The notes: a model not told the origin generated them from the letters alone. A stretch of DNA of 64,000 nucleotides from Deltaproteobacteria bacterium (GCA_016180855.1 JACPAL010000018.1:17066-81065), one strand, 5' to 3'. Shown: positions 9,583 to 62,824, counted from the stretch's first letter. Made by a program: numbers and translations.

Positions 9583-10419
9583 TCAATAGAGGTAAACAAA
9601 CTGGCCTGTTACCGCCTGCCCACTTTTTCCCAAAGGCGGGATCTTGTCAATCGCTTCTCCAAGGACCTTCTCTATCCAATTCCTGTCATCAATGGAAGGA
9701 TAGAAAACATCGGGCTCCCCTTCAATGCCAGAAAGCCTTGCGGCGACCTCAATCGCCAAGGGGAGGTTGCCTATTTCATCAATCAGTCCCAACTCCTTCG
9801 CCTCTTCTCCCGTGTAAATTCGACCATCGGCAATCTGCTCCACCTTTTGCGCCGGCAATGCTCGGCCCTCGGCCACCGCCTTCATAAATTGGTGATGCAT
9901 CTTTTTTAAGACCTCCTCGAGGTAGGCCTTCTCCTCCGGACTCATCGTCCGAATCGAAGAACCGGCATCTTTGAGCGACCCGCTCTTGAGCGTCATCGGA
10001 TGGATCTTTGCCCAACGGAGCAGCTCCTCCATGTTGACATACTCCATCCGGACTCCAATGCTACCGGTCACGGTTCCCGCATTCGCAAAAATTTTGTGAG
10101 AGGGAAGCGCCAGATAATACCCCCCAGACGCCGCGACACTGCCAAAAGAGGCAACGACCTTTTTGGACTCGCGGAGCTTCTTGACCGCTTCATGAATTTC
10201 CTGGGAAGCGCCTACCGTCCCGCCTGGCGAATCGACCCTGAGGACTACCGCCTTGACCTTCTCCTCTTTCCGCAACAATTCCAATCTTCGCACAACCGGA
10301 TCGGGCTCAAAAATCCCCCCCGTTATTTTCACCACCGCCAAGTTGCCACTGTCAGGGGAATAAATAAGAAAGAAGCCGGCTGCCAACGCCAACAGTAAAA
10401 TCCAGCGTAATCGTTTCAT
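9583..10419 (-). CDS. sppA: signal peptide peptidase SppA (36K type)
   Basis: N-terminal TM helix, catalytic-Ser region VASFGSVAASGGYYLA and ClpP/crotonase fold. Confidence 0.8.
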   Translation of the reverse strand: MKRLRWILLLALAAGFFLIYSPDSGNLAVVKITGGIFEPDPVVRRLELLRKEEKVKAVVLRVDSPGGTVGASQEIHEAVKKLRESKKVVASFGSVAASGGYYLALPSHKIFANAGTVTGSIGVRMEYVNMEELLRWAKIHPMTLKSGSLKDAGSSIRTMSPEEKAYLEEVLKKMHHQFMKAVAEGRALPAQKVEQIADGRIYTGEEAKELGLIDEIGNLPLAIEVAARLSGIEGEPDVFYPSIDDRNWIEKVLGEAIDKIPPLGKSGQAVTGQFVYLY

Positions 10420-15354: not shown

Positions 15355-16251
15355 ATGAGTCCCATCAAAGTGATGTCACTTAAAGAAGAACTCGAGGAGA
15401 TGCAAAATAACGTCGCCCTCTATAAGGCAAGCGATGAGAGACATCTTCATATGGAAGGGCCTGACGCGACCGATTATCTCCAAAGAATGGTCACAAATGA
15501 GGTCAAGACCCAGCCGATCGGCGAGGGACGTCACAACGCCCTGCTCGATCGAAAAGGTCATCCCCTCTCCCTCTTCTTTTTGATTAGGCTCTCCGAAAAC
15601 TTGTATCATCTGATTACACCACCCCAACTTAAGGAAAAGACCGCAGGGCTCTTGAAGAAATATAAGGTGATTGAGCGGTTTGAGATCAAAGATGTGAGTC
15701 AGGAGTGGGGGATTTATTGGGTAGTGGGATCTCCCGTGCCACCCGCTCTTCTGCCTGCTATTTGGCAAGAAACCATTTACAAAATCCCCGTTCGCAAAAT
15801 TCTCTATCCCAAAAATAACCCCCCTCCACTGGGAGATCTCCCTTCTGTTTCCAGACAGGCAATTGACCTCTTAAGGATGGAGGCGGGGATCCCGGAATAC
15901 GGTGTTGATATCGATGAGACGCATATTCTTCTGGAGGCCAATCTGGAGCATTGCTATAAGCGACAAAAAGGATGCTACCCCGGTCAGGAGGTGATCGAAA
16001 GAATATTGGCTTACGGTAAGGGACAGACACCGAAAAAACTTGTCACCCTGCTTGTAGAAGGAGAACGGGAGATACCCCCTAAGACAGCGATCTGGACGGC
16101 TGATAATCAAAAAGCAGGCGAAACAACCTCGGCCCTCTTTAACCCTTTAAAAAATGAGACCGTCGTCCTTGCCTACTTGGAGAATAAGTATCTTCCCCAA
16201 AGCAAGCTACATTTTGAGGATGGAACCTCTACAAAACTGCCCAGATGCTAG
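15355..16251 (+). CDS. ygfZ: YgfZ/GcvT-like folate-binding protein
   Basis: Signature KGCYPGQE near the C-terminal third, plus an aminomethyltransferase-like fold. Confidence 0.6.
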   Translation: MSPIKVMSLKEELEEMQNNVALYKASDERHLHMEGPDATDYLQRMVTNEVKTQPIGEGRHNALLDRKGHPLSLFFLIRLSENLYHLITPPQLKEKTAGLLKKYKVIERFEIKDVSQEWGIYWVVGSPVPPALLPAIWQETIYKIPVRKILYPKNNPPPLGDLPSVSRQAIDLLRMEAGIPEYGVDIDETHILLEANLEHCYKRQKGCYPGQEVIERILAYGKGQTPKKLVTLLVEGEREIPPKTAIWTADNQKAGETTSALFNPLKNETVVLAYLENKYLPQSKLHFEDGTSTKLPRC

Positions 16252-16347
16252 GCGCCCGCGAGCCAAAGACCGGAGCGTACTTGGCTGGTACGTGAGGATC
16301 TTTGGCGAGAGGGCAACAACGCAGATGGGCAGTTTTTAGAGGTTTTC
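16249..16347. repeat. family-1 related element (core gcgcccgc...ccggagcgtact...ggtacgtgagga...gcgggcaac...cagatgggcagtttttagagg) lacking TIRs
   Basis: Shares about 80 bp of core with 32905-33030 and the reverse complement of 47866-47970. Exactly spans the ygfZ-stop to PLP-enzyme-stop gap. Confidence 0.75.
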
Positions 16348-17633
16348 TAAACCACTTCCAACGCACGCTCTAGATCCATGATAATATCATCGGGATCCTC
16401 CAGACCGACGGAGAGGCGAATCCCGTTTGAATCAACACCACGGCGCCTCTTCTCCTCCTCCGGCAAACCGGAGTGGGTCATCGAAAACGGGTTTTCAGCA
16501 TCCCTGGCGATCTTGTCGATGAATCGCTCTGCCGCATGGTCATCCTTTCCCTTCAGCACAAAATAGATCATGCTGCCGGGGGCAAAGTTCCCGTGAAAGT
16601 CAGTCATCTGGGAGCGGGCCAGATCGGCCTGCGGAAAATCGGAAAGGCCTGGATAGAATACGGACCTGACCTTGGAATGATCTTTGAGGAAGGAGGCGAC
16701 CTTCATCGCCACCTCCTGTTGCTGTTTCATCCGAAGCTCCAGGGTGGAGAGTCCGTAGACCAAAATCGGCCAGGCATTTTTGGGAGAAAGCACACCGCCG
16801 AAATCCTTTCGAAAAAGGAGCAACGCATTTTCATGCTCCTCCGAGCCGACAACCGCCCCTCCCATGTCGGTCCCGAATCCGCCGATATCCTTTGTGAGGC
16901 TATGGGCCACAAGATCAACCCCCAGGGAGAGCGGTCTCTGACAGAAAGGGGTTGCAAAGGTGTTATCGATAATAAGAACGATTTTATGATCCTTCTCCCT
17001 CTTTTGATTGGCCCGATCGGCCACCTTGTGGAGCGCACGAATATCAACAAGACGAAGATTCGGATTGAGAGGACTCTCAAAATAGATCACGCGCGTCTTG
17101 TCGTTGATTGCTGATTCGTACCCCTCGCTTGTCAGATCGACAAACCGGACCTTGATCCCCAATCTTGGAAACCAATTCGTAAAAAGACTGTAAGTGCATC
17201 CATACAGAATATCGTTGGCAAGGATCTCATCCCCCGCCTTCAAATTCACCAAACAGGCGGCCGCCACCGCCGCCATTCCGGAGGCAAACGCCACCGCCAT
17301 TTCCGCCCCCTCGGCAAAGGCAAGATTCTCCTCGAGCATCCCGCGGGTCGGTTCATCAAGGCGGTCATAGATGTAGATCGGCAGATGCCTCTTCTGCGGT
17401 GTCTGATCACAGGCAAATTCAAAAAAGCCCTTGGCCCCCCGCTGTGAGGTGTCAAGCCGGAACGCCGTCGAGGCCGTCAAGGGTGGAATGACATGATGGC
17501 GATACTCCCACTTCTTGGAGTGAAACTTGCCGTGAATAAGATGGGTCGCCTTTTTATAAGGACGCCGATCGGATAGATCCTTCTTCTCCCCCGACATGCA
17601 GCCGGACGTAGCAGGAATCAATTCTTCTGACAA
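16347..17633 (-). CDS. Cys/Met-metabolism PLP-dependent enzyme (O-acetylhomoserine sulfhydrylase / methionine gamma-lyase family)
   Basis: PLP-lysine region VAHSLTKDIGG and trans-sulfuration fold. An N-terminal extension of about 60 aa means the true start may be an internal Met. Confidence 0.7.
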   Translation of the reverse strand: MSEELIPATSGCMSGEKKDLSDRRPYKKATHLIHGKFHSKKWEYRHHVIPPLTASTAFRLDTSQRGAKGFFEFACDQTPQKRHLPIYIYDRLDEPTRGMLEENLAFAEGAEMAVAFASGMAAVAAACLVNLKAGDEILANDILYGCTYSLFTNWFPRLGIKVRFVDLTSEGYESAINDKTRVIYFESPLNPNLRLVDIRALHKVADRANQKREKDHKIVLIIDNTFATPFCQRPLSLGVDLVAHSLTKDIGGFGTDMGGAVVGSEEHENALLLFRKDFGGVLSPKNAWPILVYGLSTLELRMKQQQEVAMKVASFLKDHSKVRSVFYPGLSDFPQADLARSQMTDFHGNFAPGSMIYFVLKGKDDHAAERFIDKIARDAENPFSMTHSGLPEEEKRRRGVDSNGIRLSVGLEDPDDIIMDLERALEVV

Positions 17634-17646
17634 CCCATTTGACAGG

Positions 17647-17804
17647 GTTATGGGGTGTGTTGAAAAATGGCTTTTGTGGACTGTTCAAAAATGCCCAGCT
17701 GCAAGACACCCCGAGGAGCCGCGACGCAGGCGTACTTGAGGGTACGTCGAGGAGCCGGCGACGAGGGGAACGCAGCAGATGGCATTTTTCAACAGTCCCT
17801 TATG
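17647..17804. repeat. family-2 MITE-like element with about 20-bp TIRs (GGGGACTGTTGAAAAATGCC) and TTATG flanks
   Basis: Near-identical to 37496-37626 apart from a 26-bp internal insertion. Fills the gap between the PLP-enzyme start and the recG stop. Confidence 0.8.
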
Positions 17805-32904: not shown

Positions 32905-33030
32905 CCTCCTGAGCAAAGTCGAAGGAATGCAAGGCGCCCGCAAGGCCGCGACCGGAGCGTACTTTCGTGGTACGTGAGGACGCGGACGAAGCGGGCAACA
33001 CAGCAGATGGGTAGTTTTTAGAGGTGCCCA
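32905..33030. repeat. family-1 related element with 5' cctgagcaaagtcgaagga module
   Basis: Core alignment to 16253-16345 and 47866-47970. Located upstream of yicC. Confidence 0.75.
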
Positions 33031-33033
33031 TAA

Positions 33034-33690
33034 CTACTCCAGTTTGAGTTTGGTCGACCCCAGCAAAACAACATCCCCTTTCTGAAGGAGCCGTGACTCG
33101 ACCTCAGCGCCATTCACAAAGGTTCCATTTTTACTCACCAAATCCAGAATTCCGACTCCAAGGTCATCATAGAAGATCATGGCGTGGAGACGAGAGATCG
33201 AGGAATCGGCGAGTGTTACATCCCCTTTTCGTTCAAACGCCCCCAACTTTTCGCCCTCACCCACTACCGCCCCCCTCTCCTTGTGAAATTGGGTACTGAC
33301 ATAACTCATGACCACCTTTTTGGAGACATCATCAAGACTGATGTTTGGACTTGAACTGAAAACCCGTGTCTTCTCCGTGTCGTTCAGAGATCTCCCCAAC
33401 GCACGACAACACCCTTTTTCAAGGGTAATCACCTCTCCCTTGTTCTTCCCCTCAACGACCTGAAATTGTATCGCAGGCCCGGCTGCTCCAGAGGCCTGAA
33501 ATAACTGTGTCTCTTCAAAACCGGTCGCCAATTGCTGGGATTCCTCAAGAAGAAGTGTCGGGATTCCCTCTCGAACAGGGAAGCTCAACTGACAGCTGCG
33601 ACAGCCAAGCTTCTCAGTCCCCGCCTCAAATTCCAACCGACCCTTGCATCGGGGACAGGCAAGGATGGAAAGGAGCTCCCGTTGAACCAT
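33034..33690 (-). CDS. Trm112-like zinc-ribbon (DUF343) fused to a C-terminal FHA domain
   Basis: N-terminal LSILACPRCKGRL...GCRSC zinc ribbon. C-terminal FHA signature GRS...ISRLHAMI...LDLVSKNGTFVNG. Confidence 0.65.
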   Translation of the reverse strand: MVQRELLSILACPRCKGRLEFEAGTEKLGCRSCQLSFPVREGIPTLLLEESQQLATGFEETQLFQASGAAGPAIQFQVVEGKNKGEVITLEKGCCRALGRSLNDTEKTRVFSSSPNISLDDVSKKVVMSYVSTQFHKERGAVVGEGEKLGAFERKGDVTLADSSISRLHAMIFYDDLGVGILDLVSKNGTFVNGAEVESRLLQKGDVVLLGSTKLKLE

Positions 33691-57997: not shown

Positions 57998-58700
57998 AAC
58001 ATTCCTCCTAATACTGGCGATCTGCCTCTCCTGGGTCCCTCCGCTTTTAGGGGAGTGGAAAGAGATCGGACCAACCCTTAACTATCAGCTTGTCCAAAAA
58101 GATTTCCCCATTCATCTTTTCAAAATTGATCCTAAACAATGGTCGCTCGACATCCTTGTCGCCTCCCATTATGGGATGACGACCCTGACTGCCAAGGAAT
58201 TCCGCGAAAAAAGCCGTGCCACCCTCGTTATTAACGGCGGCTTCTTCAATGAACATTTTAAATCACTTGGGCTTCTGGTTCGAAAAAGTGAGATTATTAA
58301 TCCACTGCGAAAGGCCGACTGGGGAATTTTTCAGGTTCAGGAGAAGACCGCTTCCATTATCCACCGCAAGGAATGGACCGGGCTTGGTGTCATCACGGCG
58401 ATTCAGGTTGGTCCACGCCTTTTGATCAGCGGGAAAATTCCTTTTTTCAAACCGGAGCAAAATCCCCATCGACGCTCCGCCGTTGGAATAACAGAAACAG
58501 GAGAAATCGTCATCGCCCTCTCCGAGAGCCCCCTCTATCTGAGTTCGTGGGCCAAGATCCTGCAACAATGGGCGGTCTCTGCCTTGAGCCTTGATGGCGG
58601 AGGCTCGTCTCAACTATCAGCAACGCTCCCTGGATTTTCACTGGAAGTTTCGGGAACGACGGGGGTTCCCAACGTTGTAGCGATATTCCAAAAAAACTAA
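57975..58700 (+). CDS. phosphodiester glycosidase (DUF2233) family protein
   Basis: LDGGGSSQL signature and an N-terminal signal peptide. Confidence 0.65.
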   Translation: MSRCNHHRTFLLILAICLSWVPPLLGEWKEIGPTLNYQLVQKDFPIHLFKIDPKQWSLDILVASHYGMTTLTAKEFREKSRATLVINGGFFNEHFKSLGLLVRKSEIINPLRKADWGIFQVQEKTASIIHRKEWTGLGVITAIQVGPRLLISGKIPFFKPEQNPHRRSAVGITETGEIVIALSESPLYLSSWAKILQQWAVSALSLDGGGSSQLSATLPGFSLEVSGTTGVPNVVAIFQKN

Positions 58701-59734
58701 ATTCCGGCAATCCTATCAGGCCTCCCGCCTGGCATAGGTAGCGTGTTGTCTCTTAAAAATTCTAAGAATGCCCTATATCCTCTCCTAAGAATACGTTCTG
58801 TAGTGAAATCATAGGGACCCTCTACTCGTGGCTGCCCCGGGAAATATTTCGCCCACCCAGGAGCACCTCTACAGACAGTCCTCCCTCTATCAACAACAGG
58901 AAAAAGATGACTCGGCCTGACGGTGCCATAAAGAAGTGCTTCGCCCAATCCCCAAGCATAAACGGCAGCAGCATCATTTTGTGGACTGATCCCTGTTCCA
59001 CAGCCAGAGCACGCATCCGCATAAGCTCTATTTCCACGAACAAGGATCTCAGCCTTTGCCGGAATAACGGGAAACTCCCTTCTAGGAAATTTCCTCTTAA
59101 TAATTCGATCGAGTGCCACTTCAGCATCGGCGGTAGTCCTAAACCTCTTCTCCATGATCGCAAGTGCCATCTCACGACCAGTCATCGGAGCTCTCTTTTC
59201 CGCCAACTCGCGGAGCCTTGTCTCTAAATAGATTGCGTTGAGACGGGAGCTATCGTTGAATTGGATGATCGCCCGAACTTCATCCGGCACGCCGCCAATA
59301 CCCTTCAAATATCTTTCGGCAATCATCGTCAGGCGGGCCGTTCGGCTCATCCTTCGACCTTCCCCTTTGACAATCTGAGAAGCGCTCCTCACTGGTACTG
59401 ACCGTGTAATAGCCGGTGCCGTGTACCTCACTCCTAGGTTGCGTTCAGTCATCCGTTTTATCGGCATCGGTACAGCTGCCACTCGGCTAGACCTGACGTA
59501 GGCATCTGGGTCAAAATCGACCCGTGGCCTAAAGGCCGATCGTATAAGCCTTCCAGCAGCCACACCTGCCAGTGCATAGAACCCTGATACGATTGATGTC
59601 CTAATAAAATGGTTGTCCCAATTGTATCCACTAAAGACATTGAAGGCACTCGGTTCAGGTGCAGGAGGAGGTTCACTAAATAATGGCCCTTTAAGGTGTA
59701 AATAATTAGGGGGTGATATGAATGGTGTTATCAT
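58697..59734 (-). CDS. hypothetical 345-aa protein adjacent to islet
   Basis: No confident family. Weak DACSG...H pattern reminiscent of NlpC/P60-type Cys peptidases. Confidence 0.4.
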   Translation of the reverse strand: MITPFISPPNYLHLKGPLFSEPPPAPEPSAFNVFSGYNWDNHFIRTSIVSGFYALAGVAAGRLIRSAFRPRVDFDPDAYVRSSRVAAVPMPIKRMTERNLGVRYTAPAITRSVPVRSASQIVKGEGRRMSRTARLTMIAERYLKGIGGVPDEVRAIIQFNDSSRLNAIYLETRLRELAEKRAPMTGREMALAIMEKRFRTTADAEVALDRIIKRKFPRREFPVIPAKAEILVRGNRAYADACSGCGTGISPQNDAAAVYAWGLGEALLYGTVRPSHLFPVVDRGRTVCRGAPGWAKYFPGQPRVEGPYDFTTERILRRGYRAFLEFLRDNTLPMPGGRPDRIAGI

Positions 59735-59846
59735 TTTGTTCTCCTCGCTGTTTTGCTTATCGGCTTTGTCACTTAAAAGTTGCTTAAGCCTATGTTCCTT
59801 TTTTAAATGGTCTTTAATCGGTTGGGAGGGGACTATAACTAGAGCT

Positions 59847-59946
59847 AACCACTCATCGAATCGAGAAATTCCTTGTTGGTCTTTGCGTTCTGCATCTTGT
59901 CGGTCAAGAACTCCATCGCATCGACCACGTTAAGCGGTTGCAGGAC
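59847..59946 (-). pseudogene. displaced duplicate of the last 33 codons of rho
   Basis: 100 bp identical to 62825-62924, encoding [33 protein letters not shown]. About 12 nt of residual similarity (HLNR versus HLDRK) continue upstream, then the sequence is unrelated. Confidence 0.65.
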
Positions 59947-62824
59947 ACGATTCAAATGAGTAACCGTTCTACTCAGAGAGCCCACAATAACCAGGGATCG
60001 GACCGCTGTTTCCGTCAGGATCAATACAGGTTTCCGTCGGAAGACAGTCAATATCGCTCGAATCAATTCTGCCTGCCCTTGTTGGATCGCAGATGTACTC
60101 CTGCACGGAATAAATAGTACGGCCATAACTTAATCTCGAGTGACAAGAATCAGCATAAATAAATGATTGATCTAGACTATCATGTACTGTCAACGTCACG
60201 GAACCTCCAATCCCTGGCATCATTCCACCATCGCTATCATCACAGCTAAAGGTAATACCTTCGTCAATTTCCTCATTGCAGTTGTCATCCCGGCCATCCA
60301 GCCGTTCGAGTTCTATACCGGGGTTTGTAGAAGCTCTATTATCGTCACAATCCCCACCCCCAAAGGAACAAATAGAAAGTATCCCATCCGAGACCATAGC
60401 CATATTCAGGTCGCAATAGTTATCACGATCATCATCACAACCCTCATCAACTCTCCCATTACAATCATTATCAGTATTGTCGCAGATTTCAGGGGCATAA
60501 ACACAATCTGGTTCACCTAAATCAATCTGTACCACGGCTACCCTCTCCGAAGAAGTCGATGGCCCGACAAAGCGGACCTGCCATCCAAGACCTGTCGTAC
60601 ATGTTTCGCCAGGAAGGATAAAACCATCAAAAAGGTCATCCCTCCAATCCTCGCGAGAGTTGGGGCTACAATCAAGCAAATAGGTATGGCGGCCATTCTC
60701 GTCTGTTGTACATCTCAAGAAAAGAACGCCGATCGTTGCAAAATCAAAAGAATACAGATTTTCGAGACGAGATTGATCTGCAGAAAGGATGGCATCCATA
60801 ATTATCATGCGATCATAACCAAGGGGCTCCCTGTATTCAACGGATAGGGTGTCACAAGGTTCCGTGACGAAGCGTTCTGCCCGGTAATCGTGAACGACGC
60901 CACTGGTCAGGGCATTATCTACTTCAAGCTGGATACATTGAGGATCGGTACTACCAGCTTCAACGGCCCCCAAGAGATCGGGGAGAGCAGAAGATAAACC
61001 AGCCTCCATCTCCAACCACCCCAATTTTTCCTTATAAGCACAGTTAAAATGGCCATGGCCAGGGTAGGCAGCCATCGTATCAAAGGGGTCCCCATAATCC
61101 GACCTCTCAAGACAACTCCCCCCAAAGACCGACTCGCCACAATCGAGGTCATGCGCATGATTCAAACCTAAGACATGCCCCCCTTCATGAAGGATAGTTT
61201 CATCATCAAAATGGTTACGCCCCATCGTGATGGTGTGCAAGGCAACCAACCCATCATCCGTGGGCCACTCATGCCTCCCTAAATATCTGCCATTGCCTGC
61301 AGCGGTAGGATACAAAAGAAGCCAATCATAATTGGCAAAGTTCACCTGATCCTCACAGAGACGGATCATAGTTGGAATGATAAGACCAGAAGAGATCGAC
61401 GGTCGCGTGCTATCTGCATAGGCCTCACAAACATCAAATCCTATGGAAAACTGACCAAAGGAAAGTTCTCTGAAGCTCTCTTCGGCCGATCTTGTCTCAC
61501 GATCAACCGTCGCCCGATCACTGATCGCCGCCTCATAAGGATCATTTTGCCAATGAACATACAAAACAATCCCTCTGGCGCCAGGACCCACTGATAAATT
61601 CACTAAGCTCCGAAATTCGTCTGGAAGAGTTTCATCGCTCAAGATAGTGGGATCGTTTAAATCCACTAAAGAATAACTCTGCAACACAGCCCCCATTTCC
61701 AATAACATTACAGCAAGGGAATTCATCTCAACAAAATTCATATCGGCGAGGAAGGTCGTGTCGAGATGAGCAAAGGCTACCGGGTCGCTAAATTGACTCT
61801 TAAAACTTTCATAGAAAGCAGTGGCTGCTTTGCCCACCTCAGAACACCAATTTTCCCCTTCAAGTTGCCTGAAAAACGCCATCTGATCTGAAATCAGATC
61901 AAGTAATTTCCCCTCCCCGATGAACTTTTCATAAAGCGCAGGACTTAAGTTCCCAACCCTTAAGATCGCTTGCTCAAGTTGCTCGAGTCTTTGGGGCCAT
62001 ACCAGCTTGAACTCCTCACGAAACAGTTGATTAACAAGACGAGGCGCCCGATGACTAAAATTCGCAATCGCTATTTTGGCCAAATCAGACTCGCTTTCTT
62101 TAATCAAATCCCCTTTCAGAACAGAAAGAATCTTGGCTATTTCATTGATCTTCGATACTTCCGGGGTACATTGAACTGATCCAAACTCAATAAGATCTTT
62201 TGATAGAAGTTGCTCCAGTTCCGCTGCCTCACAAAGGGCAATTTCTCTGGATAGACCAACGCTGTCCATCTCCTCTTCCAACGATTTTCGGGATTCACGA
62301 AGAACGGTGAGAAAATTTTCCATCGCCAGTTTTCCGCCCATTAACTTTTTCATCTCTTCCTCAATTCTTCTCCCCTCAATAATAAAAAGAAGAATCATCT
62401 CATTATCGAGAATCGCTCCTTCTTCCATCAGTCGCATCATCTCTGACTCTTTTTCCAGTAATCCCTGGATTCCTGACTCGACCTCTACCAGTCTCTTTTC
62501 AACTTCATCTTGTTTGAAGCGGACGGTTTCAAGGCGGGAGGATATCAGAGAGAGGGGGGGGGTACCCTCCGGCGGAAAGGGGCAGCTAAACGCCCAAAGT
62601 TGGTTTGGCAGGGAGAAAACAAACAGGAGAACAACCAGGATCGGTATGTTGCGTGGCATAATCACCTCCCGTGAATGGTAGATATGCCATATTCATGCCA
62701 AATTCTGATTGTATAAAACTAGGTGATCAACTTTATGAAACTATTGTTAAATCTGAGTGTGGTCTTGTCTCTTTGTGAAGAGTAAAACGAGAAATGAAGT
62801 TCTGGTGAAAGAAAGTCTATTCTC
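59947..62824 (-). mobile_element. AT-rich single-gene islet inserted at the 3' end of rho, bounded by 100-bp direct repeats; no integrase present
   Basis: Perfect direct repeats at 59847-59946 and 62825-62924. The interior GC is about 44% against about 53% in the flanks. It carries only the metalloprotease gene and its AT-rich promoter. Confidence 0.5.
59969..62665 (-). CDS. secreted metzincin-like zinc metalloprotease with N-terminal coiled-coil region and C-terminal MopE-like Cys/Asp-rich repeats
   Basis: Signal peptide, HEGGHVLGLNHAHD (HExxHxxGxxH) and repeats such as CDDNRASTNPGIELERLDGRDDNCNEEIDEG. RBS GGGAGGTGA upstream. AT-rich (about 44% GC) relative to the flanks. Confidence 0.75.
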   Translation of the reverse strand: MIMPRNIPILVVLLFVFSLPNQLWAFSCPFPPEGTPPLSLISSRLETVRFKQDEVEKRLVEVESGIQGLLEKESEMMRLMEEGAILDNEMILLFIIEGRRIEEEMKKLMGGKLAMENFLTVLRESRKSLEEEMDSVGLSREIALCEAAELEQLLSKDLIEFGSVQCTPEVSKINEIAKILSVLKGDLIKESESDLAKIAIANFSHRAPRLVNQLFREEFKLVWPQRLEQLEQAILRVGNLSPALYEKFIGEGKLLDLISDQMAFFRQLEGENWCSEVGKAATAFYESFKSQFSDPVAFAHLDTTFLADMNFVEMNSLAVMLLEMGAVLQSYSLVDLNDPTILSDETLPDEFRSLVNLSVGPGARGIVLYVHWQNDPYEAAISDRATVDRETRSAEESFRELSFGQFSIGFDVCEAYADSTRPSISSGLIIPTMIRLCEDQVNFANYDWLLLYPTAAGNGRYLGRHEWPTDDGLVALHTITMGRNHFDDETILHEGGHVLGLNHAHDLDCGESVFGGSCLERSDYGDPFDTMAAYPGHGHFNCAYKEKLGWLEMEAGLSSALPDLLGAVEAGSTDPQCIQLEVDNALTSGVVHDYRAERFVTEPCDTLSVEYREPLGYDRMIIMDAILSADQSRLENLYSFDFATIGVLFLRCTTDENGRHTYLLDCSPNSREDWRDDLFDGFILPGETCTTGLGWQVRFVGPSTSSERVAVVQIDLGEPDCVYAPEICDNTDNDCNGRVDEGCDDDRDNYCDLNMAMVSDGILSICSFGGGDCDDNRASTNPGIELERLDGRDDNCNEEIDEGITFSCDDSDGGMMPGIGGSVTLTVHDSLDQSFIYADSCHSRLSYGRTIYSVQEYICDPTRAGRIDSSDIDCLPTETCIDPDGNSGPIPGYCGLSE

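Follow-up and report, generated by a model that had tools for sequence, protein, structure and literature searches.

A predicted exported metzincin of a gametolysin-like subfamily, encoded between direct repeats of the rho 3′ end in a deltaproteobacterial genome

In a genome recorded as Deltaproteobacteria bacterium (GCA_016180855.1, JACPAL010000018.1:17066-81065), a long gene lies directly behind rho and is bounded on both sides by the same piece of rho, which raises the question of what the gene encodes and how it came to stand there. We analyzed the whole 64,000-nt stretch, which we refer to as the window; positions are counted from its first letter, and all genes and protein features described for the locus lie on its minus strand. 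The reading that we consider probable is that the gene encodes an exported, multidomain metzincin zinc endopeptidase of a divergent gametolysin-like subfamily (of the kind annotated as PF05548/MEROPS M11) and that it is the single cargo of a recently acquired insert of ~3 kb at the 3′ end of rho.

The locus is defined by perfect 100-nt direct repeats, each corresponding to the final 33 codons of rho plus the first stop-codon base. One copy (62825..62924) closes the rho gene that is in use and takes in the first base of the TGA, while the other (59847..59946) is a displaced rho 3′ fragment that runs into a TAG stop codon (59845-59847). On the minus strand, the order by inspection is rho with its TGA, a 157-nt spacer that reaches from this stop codon to the start of the protease gene (62666..62822), the protease gene, 22 nt, the rho 3′ fragment with its TAG, and a neighboring gene, ORF345. 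The inter-repeat segment measures 2,978 bp, and the protease gene is the only open reading frame (ORF) with homologues within it, in keeping with the initial annotation, which had described the gene as the sole payload of an islet. Its GC content of 0.466 is the lowest of the 35 long ORFs of the window, and its GC content at third codon positions (GC3) is 0.444; the other window ORFs average 0.516 ± 0.018 and 0.573 ± 0.047, respectively.

The gene appears in the ORF list of the window as an uninterrupted frame of 898 codons (59969-62665). The mechanically assigned start is a GTG at 62665, but because the ATG at 62659, two codons further in, has a strong Shine-Dalgarno sequence (GGGAGGTGA) in front of it, the coding sequence probably spans 59969..62659 and specifies a product of 896 amino acids, followed by a TAG stop codon at 59969-59971. 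The 896-residue product is identical on an assembled Logan contig (L004) and equals NCBI entry MBI2068191.1, "hypothetical protein HYT77_09295," from a "Deltaproteobacteria bacterium" metagenome-assembled genome (MAG) whose accession series matches groundwater MAGs, which suggests a groundwater habitat. The sequence opens with a predicted Sec signal peptide (MPRNIPILVVLLFVFSLPNQLWA, 62591..62659) with likely cleavage after LWA and, in the same by-eye reading, without a canonical lipobox; a hydrophobic segment also opens the homologues P0002, P0003, P0005, and P0007. Export, likewise assigned in the initial annotation, is thus supported by inspection of the signal peptide.

The core of the protein is a metzincin-type catalytic domain together with a conserved beta-rich subdomain (residues 360-717; 60515..61588), delimited from HMMER relatives, motifs, an AlphaFold2 (AF2) model, Foldseek, and hhalign. 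A regular-expression scan and alignments of 20 catalytic regions (A1) and of 46 sequences (A3) bear out the HExxHxxGxxH zinc site read earlier from the DNA: it is HEGGHVLGLNH, at residues 493-503 (61157..61189), and it is the sole HExxH in the protein, with ~4e-5 such matches expected by chance. The H, E, H, and H of this motif are invariant or near-invariant in both alignments, while Gly500 is not invariant among the relatives. His493, His497, and His503 are thus the likely zinc ligands and Glu494 the likely catalytic (general) base. Met531 (61073..61075), which lies in the motif YGDxFDxMG 28 residues after the third His and has a conservation of at least 90% in A1 and A3, is a likely candidate for the Met-turn methionine. 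The family motifs seen in A1 are HExGHxxGLxH(A/S), a Cys, YGDxFDxMG, N..K..GW, EYR, and LLDxTP.

An exhaustive phmmer search with residues 330-720 against 1.84 billion representative proteins recovered 1,543 proteins at E ≤ 1e-3, 103 at E ≤ 1e-10, and 8 at E ≤ 1e-30, including a PF05548-bearing protein (P0085) at an E value of 3e-11. When the A1 profile was run against an annotated database, it matched 46 proteins, almost all with precomputed PF05548 (Peptidase_M11, gametolysin) and with names such as "Ig-like domain-containing," "NEW3 domain-containing," and "M6 family metalloprotease-like." An hhalign comparison of the close subfamily (the window protein and eight relatives) with 26 PF05548-bearing proteins gave a probability of 100% and an E value of 3.4e-44 over 307 aligned columns. 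By these profile comparisons, the PF05548-carrying proteins are demonstrably homologous to the protease. On the closest homologues, the PF05548 model itself scores 15 to 20 bits. The models for Reprolysin_5, M10, M43, M66, M54, astacin, serralysin, and the M6 domain, all of metzincin families, each score 10 to 15 bits on the protease; the M6 domain model TIGR03296 reaches 11.7 bits against a cutoff of 110.8, and the resemblance to M6 peptidases is therefore structural only. No match was found in PHROGs. A word-indexed search with the full-length protein also returned no match, which is a false negative due to low-complexity words, as the collection contains an identical entry. We therefore place the protein, on profile comparisons, among the metzincins, in an uncurated subfamily akin to the gametolysin-like peptidases, and do not count it as a threshold-passing member of PF05548. 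Subclan MA(M) of the metzincins includes families M11 and M12, which have the motif HEXXHXXXXXH and are usually made as proenzymes (PMC7518263).

Against the sequences of solved structures in the PDB, the single protease sequence yielded only noise, and the A1 profile matched only adamalysins, ADAMTS proteins, serralysins, and matrix metalloproteinases (MMPs), with E values of 3e-4 to 4e-2. A model made by AF2 with the 46-sequence alignment has a predicted local distance difference test (pLDDT) score of about 90 in the catalytic region and 75.9 overall; the single-sequence model, with a pLDDT of 33, was unusable. Foldseek placed the former model closest to the zymogen of Bacillus anthracis immune inhibitor A2 (InhA2; E value of 1e-6, 328 columns), followed by fragilysin, ADAM-8, snake-venom metalloproteinases, ADAMTS-4, and PAPP-A. 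All significant PDB matches (E ≤ 1e-3) are metzincins, and the probability is 1.00 through rank 26; TM-scores are low, which we attribute to the extra domains. The model thus predicts a metzincin catalytic fold. The initial annotation had called the protein a metzincin-like protease and had proposed a profile search and structure prediction as checks; the identification is upheld by the zinc motif, the conserved Met, the exclusively metzincin matches in Foldseek, the weak metzincin profile matches, and the homology to PF05548 proteins. Of the two checks, structure prediction returned the fold, whereas the profile search brought no curated peptidase model to threshold.

Comparison with better-known enzymes defines the position of the subfamily more closely. 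The PF05548-annotated bacterial proteins share ~307 columns with it, covering the catalytic domain and the beta subdomain, as well as the motifs HExGHxxGLxH, YGDxFDxMG, N..K..GW, EYR, and LLDxTP. They differ from it in that identity is 20 to 27%, the PF05548 model is silent on the window protease, and their C termini carry Ig, NEW3, or MG2 domains in place of MopE repeats and a six-Cys module; they also lack a long helical N terminus. OgpA of Akkermansia muciniphila, an M11-annotated O-glycopeptidase, likewise has three His ligands and a Met-turn (PMC7518263), but its Met follows the third His by 16 residues rather than 28, and it is absent from the top 50 Foldseek matches in the PDB. The zinc motif and the fold class are also common to the adamalysin/ADAM, fragilysin, serralysin, and MMP peptidases (M12B, M10), but these are subthreshold matches whose similarity is confined to the surroundings of the active-site helix. 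InhA2 of Bacillus (MEROPS M6; PDB 4yu6), the best solved structural match (probability of 1.00), is a multidomain secreted metzincin crystallized as a zymogen, but its sequence identity to the protease is 10 to 12% and its TM-score is 0.30/0.25. The M6 peptidases have a different third ligand, HEXXHXXGXXD.

Outside the catalytic region, the protein carries three accessory regions. The first is a Leu/Glu-rich N-terminal region (residues 31-330 in the 898-aa numbering; 61676..62575), with 14% each of Leu and Glu, predicted to be helical from its composition and from the low-confidence single-sequence model. It matched no Pfam family even at E ≤ 5. The initial annotation had called these N-terminal 300 residues coiled-coil rich, which is not established: heptad-like periodicity is patchy, and because three cysteines (Cys145, Cys166, and Cys274) are conserved with the best homologue, P0002, the region is more likely to be a folded domain of helices than one unbroken coiled coil. 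As M11/M12 peptidases and InhA2 are zymogens, this region of ~300 amino acids may, by analogy, be a prodomain that confers latency, or else a stalk.

The second region is a Cys/Asp-rich linker (60257..60505) in which Pfam and a regular-expression scan locate MopE-type (PF11617) sequence. The initial annotation had counted at least three MopE-type repeats. The type of motif stands, but the scan finds two DxDCNxxxDEG cores, CDNTDNDCNGRVDEG and CDDNRASTNPGIELERLDGRDDNCNEEIDEG, at residues 732 and 793, and three "CDD" starts do not make three full units; the string CDDNRASTNPGIELERLDGRDDNC occupies residues 773-796. PF11617 scores 49.5 bits on the homologue P0002 and 40.1 bits on P0005. The repeats appear to be disulfide rich and acidic and may bind metal, with Ca2+ a more likely ligand than Cu. 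The third region is a C-terminal module of 94 amino acids (59972..60253) that ends in CIDPDG..YCG and whose six cysteines are invariant in an alignment of five bacterial and archaeal sequences (A4). It has no Pfam match and no PDB sequence match, even with a profile; AF2 places beta strands in it at a pLDDT of 60 to 75. This six-Cys module could plausibly bind a substrate or a surface.

The best homologue, P0002, is a 918-aa protein from a Logan contig of a genome with a GC content of about 0.40. Its alignment spans residues 52-893, with 28% identity overall and 43% in the catalytic region, and it shares the full-length architecture, including the three N-terminal cysteines, the MopE repeats, and the C-terminal module with CIDPDG..YCG; no rho-like flanks surround its gene on contig L006. 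The same MAG and its sister bins hold a paralogue of 735 aa (P0003, HYT77_07610; 38% identity) with a host-typical GC content of 0.514. That gene lies far from rho, between a Fic-domain/MarR-like gene, which it directly follows, and an amino-acid permease gene; at L007:3008-6311 it has the same layout with one MopE core. Further homologues occur in other groundwater "Deltaproteobacteria" MAGs. One close homologue, P0006 (825 aa), is encoded in an archaeon, with GatD/GatE, RpoL, aIF2-gamma, an ADP-dependent kinase, and a class-I LysRS as neighbors; at that locus (L092:8001-17840, GCA_053535375.1), a 1,063-aa protein encoded ~4 kb away has weak matches to Kazal-type inhibitor domains. Among 87 loci of protease relatives, rho is nearby in one, L095:2322-5931 (Ga0209515_10005145; GC content of 0.39), a metagenome contig on which rho, on the same strand, stands two genes upstream of the relative. 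The contig ends inside the protease gene and shows no duplication of the rho 3′ end, and the proximity is compatible with chance.

Other assemblies of the same or related strains bear on whether the arrangement is real and how stable it is. The Logan assemblies of three runs break at the rho repeats, with both repeat exits present, and the segment between the repeats corresponds to contig L004. In a contig assembled independently (L005, GCA_016187815.1), the protease gene is followed by a rho fragment of ~136 nt and then by ORF345 and the genes for NAGPA, an RND adaptor, and GlyRS, at 99 to 99.6% identity. Because this contig spans the protease gene, the rho fragment, and the downstream genes, the right junction is real; for the left junction, a scan of JGI metagenomes gave no match. 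Compared with window positions 58275-59373, L005 has several small indels that break up ORF345 (209 aa called) and the NAGPA gene (141 + 103 aa), which suggests strain microheterogeneity or local assembly errors in the MAGs. A contig from the same bin as L005 (L089), ~96% identical in rho, carries an intact rho of 467 aa and no protease gene; behind its rho come TAG, 8 nt, the final 42 nt of ORF345, and a dispersed repeat. A scan of GTDB representative genomes with Rho found no same-species empty site, its nearest matches being 72 to 73% identical and including a Bdellovibrionaceae MAG at 72%. Since the insert is strain variable and compositionally foreign, it was probably acquired recently.

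The rho gene in the window (62823..64000, continuing past the window end; annotated as 432 aa) itself shows, in alignment A2, an in-frame deletion of 35 codons. HLDRKLM is joined directly to VLQPL, and the right edge of the deletion is the repeat boundary 62924/62925. The 35 missing residues, EKRIFPxxDxNxSGTRKEELLLxxxxLNRxWILRK, are highly conserved and present in all relatives in that alignment, and their codons occur nowhere else in the window. The NCBI record of this Rho (MBI2068192.1, P0198) carries the same gap, while the protein from a sister bin (P0318) is intact. In Escherichia coli Rho, this segment contains the arginine finger. The displaced fragment is shortened as well: it is 18 nt shorter, lacking TGGATCCTCCGCAAGGTC (WILRKV), than its counterparts at L005:1278-1413 and L004:2901-2930, from which the natural rho repeat measures about 136 nt. 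The two deletions share an endpoint, the base at the left edge of the 100-nt repeat (59946/59947 in the fragment). The 35-codon deletion is either genuine, as a loss-of-function allele, or an error of local assembly at the repeat. In the first case, the strain would have the remarkable property of a Rho without the arginine-finger segment; in the second, the gap would serve as a useful warning about the deposited contig.

Whether rho 3′ ends are duplicated elsewhere was examined by scanning related rho loci for extra copies of their own rho 3′ end. Of 80 loci fetched, 79 had a locatable Rho C terminus, and extra copies were present in a single one, from an unrelated MAG (L031, BTVE01000048.1; 7845-14650). 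At that locus, three further partial rho 3′ copies (at 9788, 11387, and 14604) bound three small islets whose cargoes are a 67-aa ORF with a PIN remnant, a glyoxalase gene with an RHH/PIN (VapBC-type) pair, and a MacB/FtsX permease gene with a PadR gene. In the distal copy, the native downstream sequence is retained, together with a terminator-like hairpin; one of the intermediate copies is internally deleted, and the array contains no integrase gene. The first extra copy has its left edge at codons homologous to those in the window (V-L-N-P-L there and V-L-Q-P-L here), which makes a recurrent, site-directed process at the rho 3′ end plausible; two cases do not amount to proof.

If the insert was acquired as we propose, the incoming DNA would have carried its own copy of the last codons of rho and so displaced the native rho 3′ fragment downstream. 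Entry would have occurred by recombination at the rho 3′ end, either catalyzed in trans by a recombinase or as Campbell-type homologous recombination of a circle with rho homology, and recombination between the repeats could remove the insert again.

Several observations weigh against this account of the protein and its locus. No curated peptidase family model reaches its threshold on the protease, and PF05548 (gathering threshold of 21 bits) gives no match to the full protein or the isolated domain even at E ≤ 5, so that the link to that family is transitive. The Met-turn and the active site were assigned from the sequence, and the signal peptide was called by eye. The PF11617 score is marginal (27.2 bits against a cutoff of 27.0, over two stretches), and the MopE region is poorly modeled, with an AF2 pLDDT below 50. 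At the level of the locus, the islet, ORF345, and the other scanned ORFs of the window encode no recombinase, and the insertion mechanism is accordingly one that we infer; of the description "rho-targeted" in the initial annotation, the rho 3′ repeats stand but a site-specific mechanism is unsupported. The spacer contains no sigma-70-like promoter or intrinsic terminator above shuffled expectation, so that cotranscription by read-through from rho into the protease gene is possible. The paralogue in the same genome means that the protease family is not foreign to the lineage, and L089 also lacks ORF345 except for its last 42 nt, so that it is not a clean empty site. Finally, the anomalous deletions lie exactly at a repeat boundary, and an assembly error at the left junction of the deposited contig is possible.

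These points feed two other accounts of the locus. In one, which we regard as unlikely, the protease gene is native and vertically inherited, the rho 3′ duplication was a one-off local rearrangement, and the absence of the gene from another strain reflects deletion. The host-typical paralogue, the homologues in other groundwater "Deltaproteobacteria" MAGs, and the lack of an integrase gene in the islet, ORF345, or the scanned window ORFs all fit such a history, as does the larger and untidy nature of the difference at L089, which takes ORF345 with it. However, a native gene would not be expected to have the lowest GC content of the 35 ORFs, nor to find its nearest homologue, full length and collinear, in a foreign low-GC genome at 43% identity when the paralogue reaches 38%; moreover, the geometry of the locus, in which the insert supplies the target 3′ end and the native end is displaced, is a classic integration footprint, and a like geometry with other cargo is present at L031. 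The lateral origin proposed in the initial annotation is therefore reasonably supported by the low GC content, the absence of the gene after rho in a ~96%-identical strain, and the closer foreign homologue, although the finding that would have argued against it, homologues as core genes of related genomes, was made in part: the genome itself and sister MAGs have host-typical paralogues at another locus. The second account, that the arrangement is wholly or partly an assembly artifact, we judge to be very unlikely. The protease gene would then reside on a separate molecule (for instance, a small circle with a rho fragment) or in another organism and would have been misthreaded through the repeat, with the rho deletion as a symptom. 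Both the 35-codon and the 18-nt deletion do end at one repeat boundary, the short-read unitigs break at the repeats and would equally fit a circle plus an empty site, and the left junction found no match in JGI metagenomes. Yet the independent contig L005 links the protease gene by way of a 136-nt rho fragment to the downstream genes seen in the window, at 99 to 99.6% identity, both junction types occur in the Logan assemblies of three runs, and internal deletions in displaced fragments occur at L031 too.

As to function, the initial annotation had suggested a virulence or predation factor, which would attack host or prey cells. We find this proposal unsupported and distinctly improbable. It can draw on the predicted export of the protein and its putative binding modules, on structural neighbors that are toxins or virulence factors (InhA2, fragilysin, and the snake-venom metalloproteinases), on close homologues in low-GC, possibly episymbiotic bacteria and in an archaeon, and on the Bdellovibrionaceae MAG at 72% among the nearest Rho sequences in GTDB. 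Such metzincins are, however, equally common as nutritional or cell surface-processing enzymes; the source is an uncultured groundwater MAG, housekeeping genes make up the rest of the window, and nothing identifies a substrate, a host, or a lifestyle. It is more improbable still, to the point of being hardly credible, that the protein is mainly a metal-binding (copper) or adhesive surface protein with an inactive peptidase domain. The "Cu-binding_MopE" motif of PF11617, the many Cys and Asp residues, and the large noncatalytic regions might be read in that sense, but the catalytic residues are all intact and conserved family-wide, the PF11617 score is marginal, and the copper site of MopE is described as two His residues and a kynurenine and is not formed by this repeat (PMC3423442). 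For the exported metzincin that we prefer, general extracellular or cell surface proteolysis is the default expectation. Nor is the combination of domains new, since a MopE-type motif beside gametolysin domains has already been noted in Volvox and Chlamydomonas (PMC3278476).

The surroundings of the insert add a few observations. ORF345 (58697..59734, from the ORF list) has no Pfam or PHROG match, and its GC3 of 0.436 is as atypical as that of the protease gene, so that it may belong to the same variable region. The remaining window ORFs that were scanned are housekeeping genes. Dispersed intergenic repeats occur in the window as a 99-nt pair with 98% identity (17653-17751 and 37500-37598) and as a family of ~110 nt with 80 to 90% identity (16245-16356 and 32927-33038, also at ~28.7 kb and ~47.9 kb), which is present, too, directly after rho in L089 and at the end of contig L001. 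They look like elements of the repetitive extragenic palindromic (REP) or miniature inverted-repeat transposable element (MITE) type, and they coincide with contig breaks. An integron-like organization of the locus was considered and rejected, as there are no attC-like sites and no IntI.

Among described elements, the insert compares best with cis-mobilizable elements (CIMEs), which keep att sites, have lost the integrase, and contain no genes for integration or transfer (PMC5704250), and with genomic islands at 3′ ends of genes. Like these, it has a replacement 3′ end, a displaced native end, flanking direct repeats, and no integration or transfer genes. It differs from CIMEs in that its repeats measure 100 to 136 nt, against the usual 8 to 60 bp (PMC5704250), and in that it holds a single gene within 3 kb. 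A narrow literature search found no precedent for rho as an integration target. A bolder idea, which we offer as speculation and think doubtful, is that the rho 3′ end serves as the attachment site of an undescribed form of gene capture. Integrase-less islets of one to three genes, each with a replacement rho end, would pile up there in tandem, moved by a recombinase in trans or by RecA acting on ~100 to 136 nt of homology, and imprecise events might damage rho, which may account for the 35-codon deletion.

The enzyme type is ordinary, and the rho-bounded, recombinase-less insert is the more curious part. For the protein family, the result is that more than 1,500 members of an apparently exported metallopeptidase family, from uncultured groundwater bacteria and archaea, have been labeled "hypothetical" because no curated model catches the close subfamily. 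Profile comparisons and the structural model tie this family to the gametolysin-like metzincins and define two uncurated modules, one N-terminal and predicted to be helical and one C-terminal with six cysteines. For the organism, a single-gene insert that would rebuild the end of an essential transcription factor gene without a recombinase of its own would illustrate on a small scale how, in nature, accessory genes come to stand behind core genes, with a second instance in another lineage. It is this context, with its recombinase-less islets at the rho 3′ end and the damaged rho of the deposited contig, that is the part worth following up.

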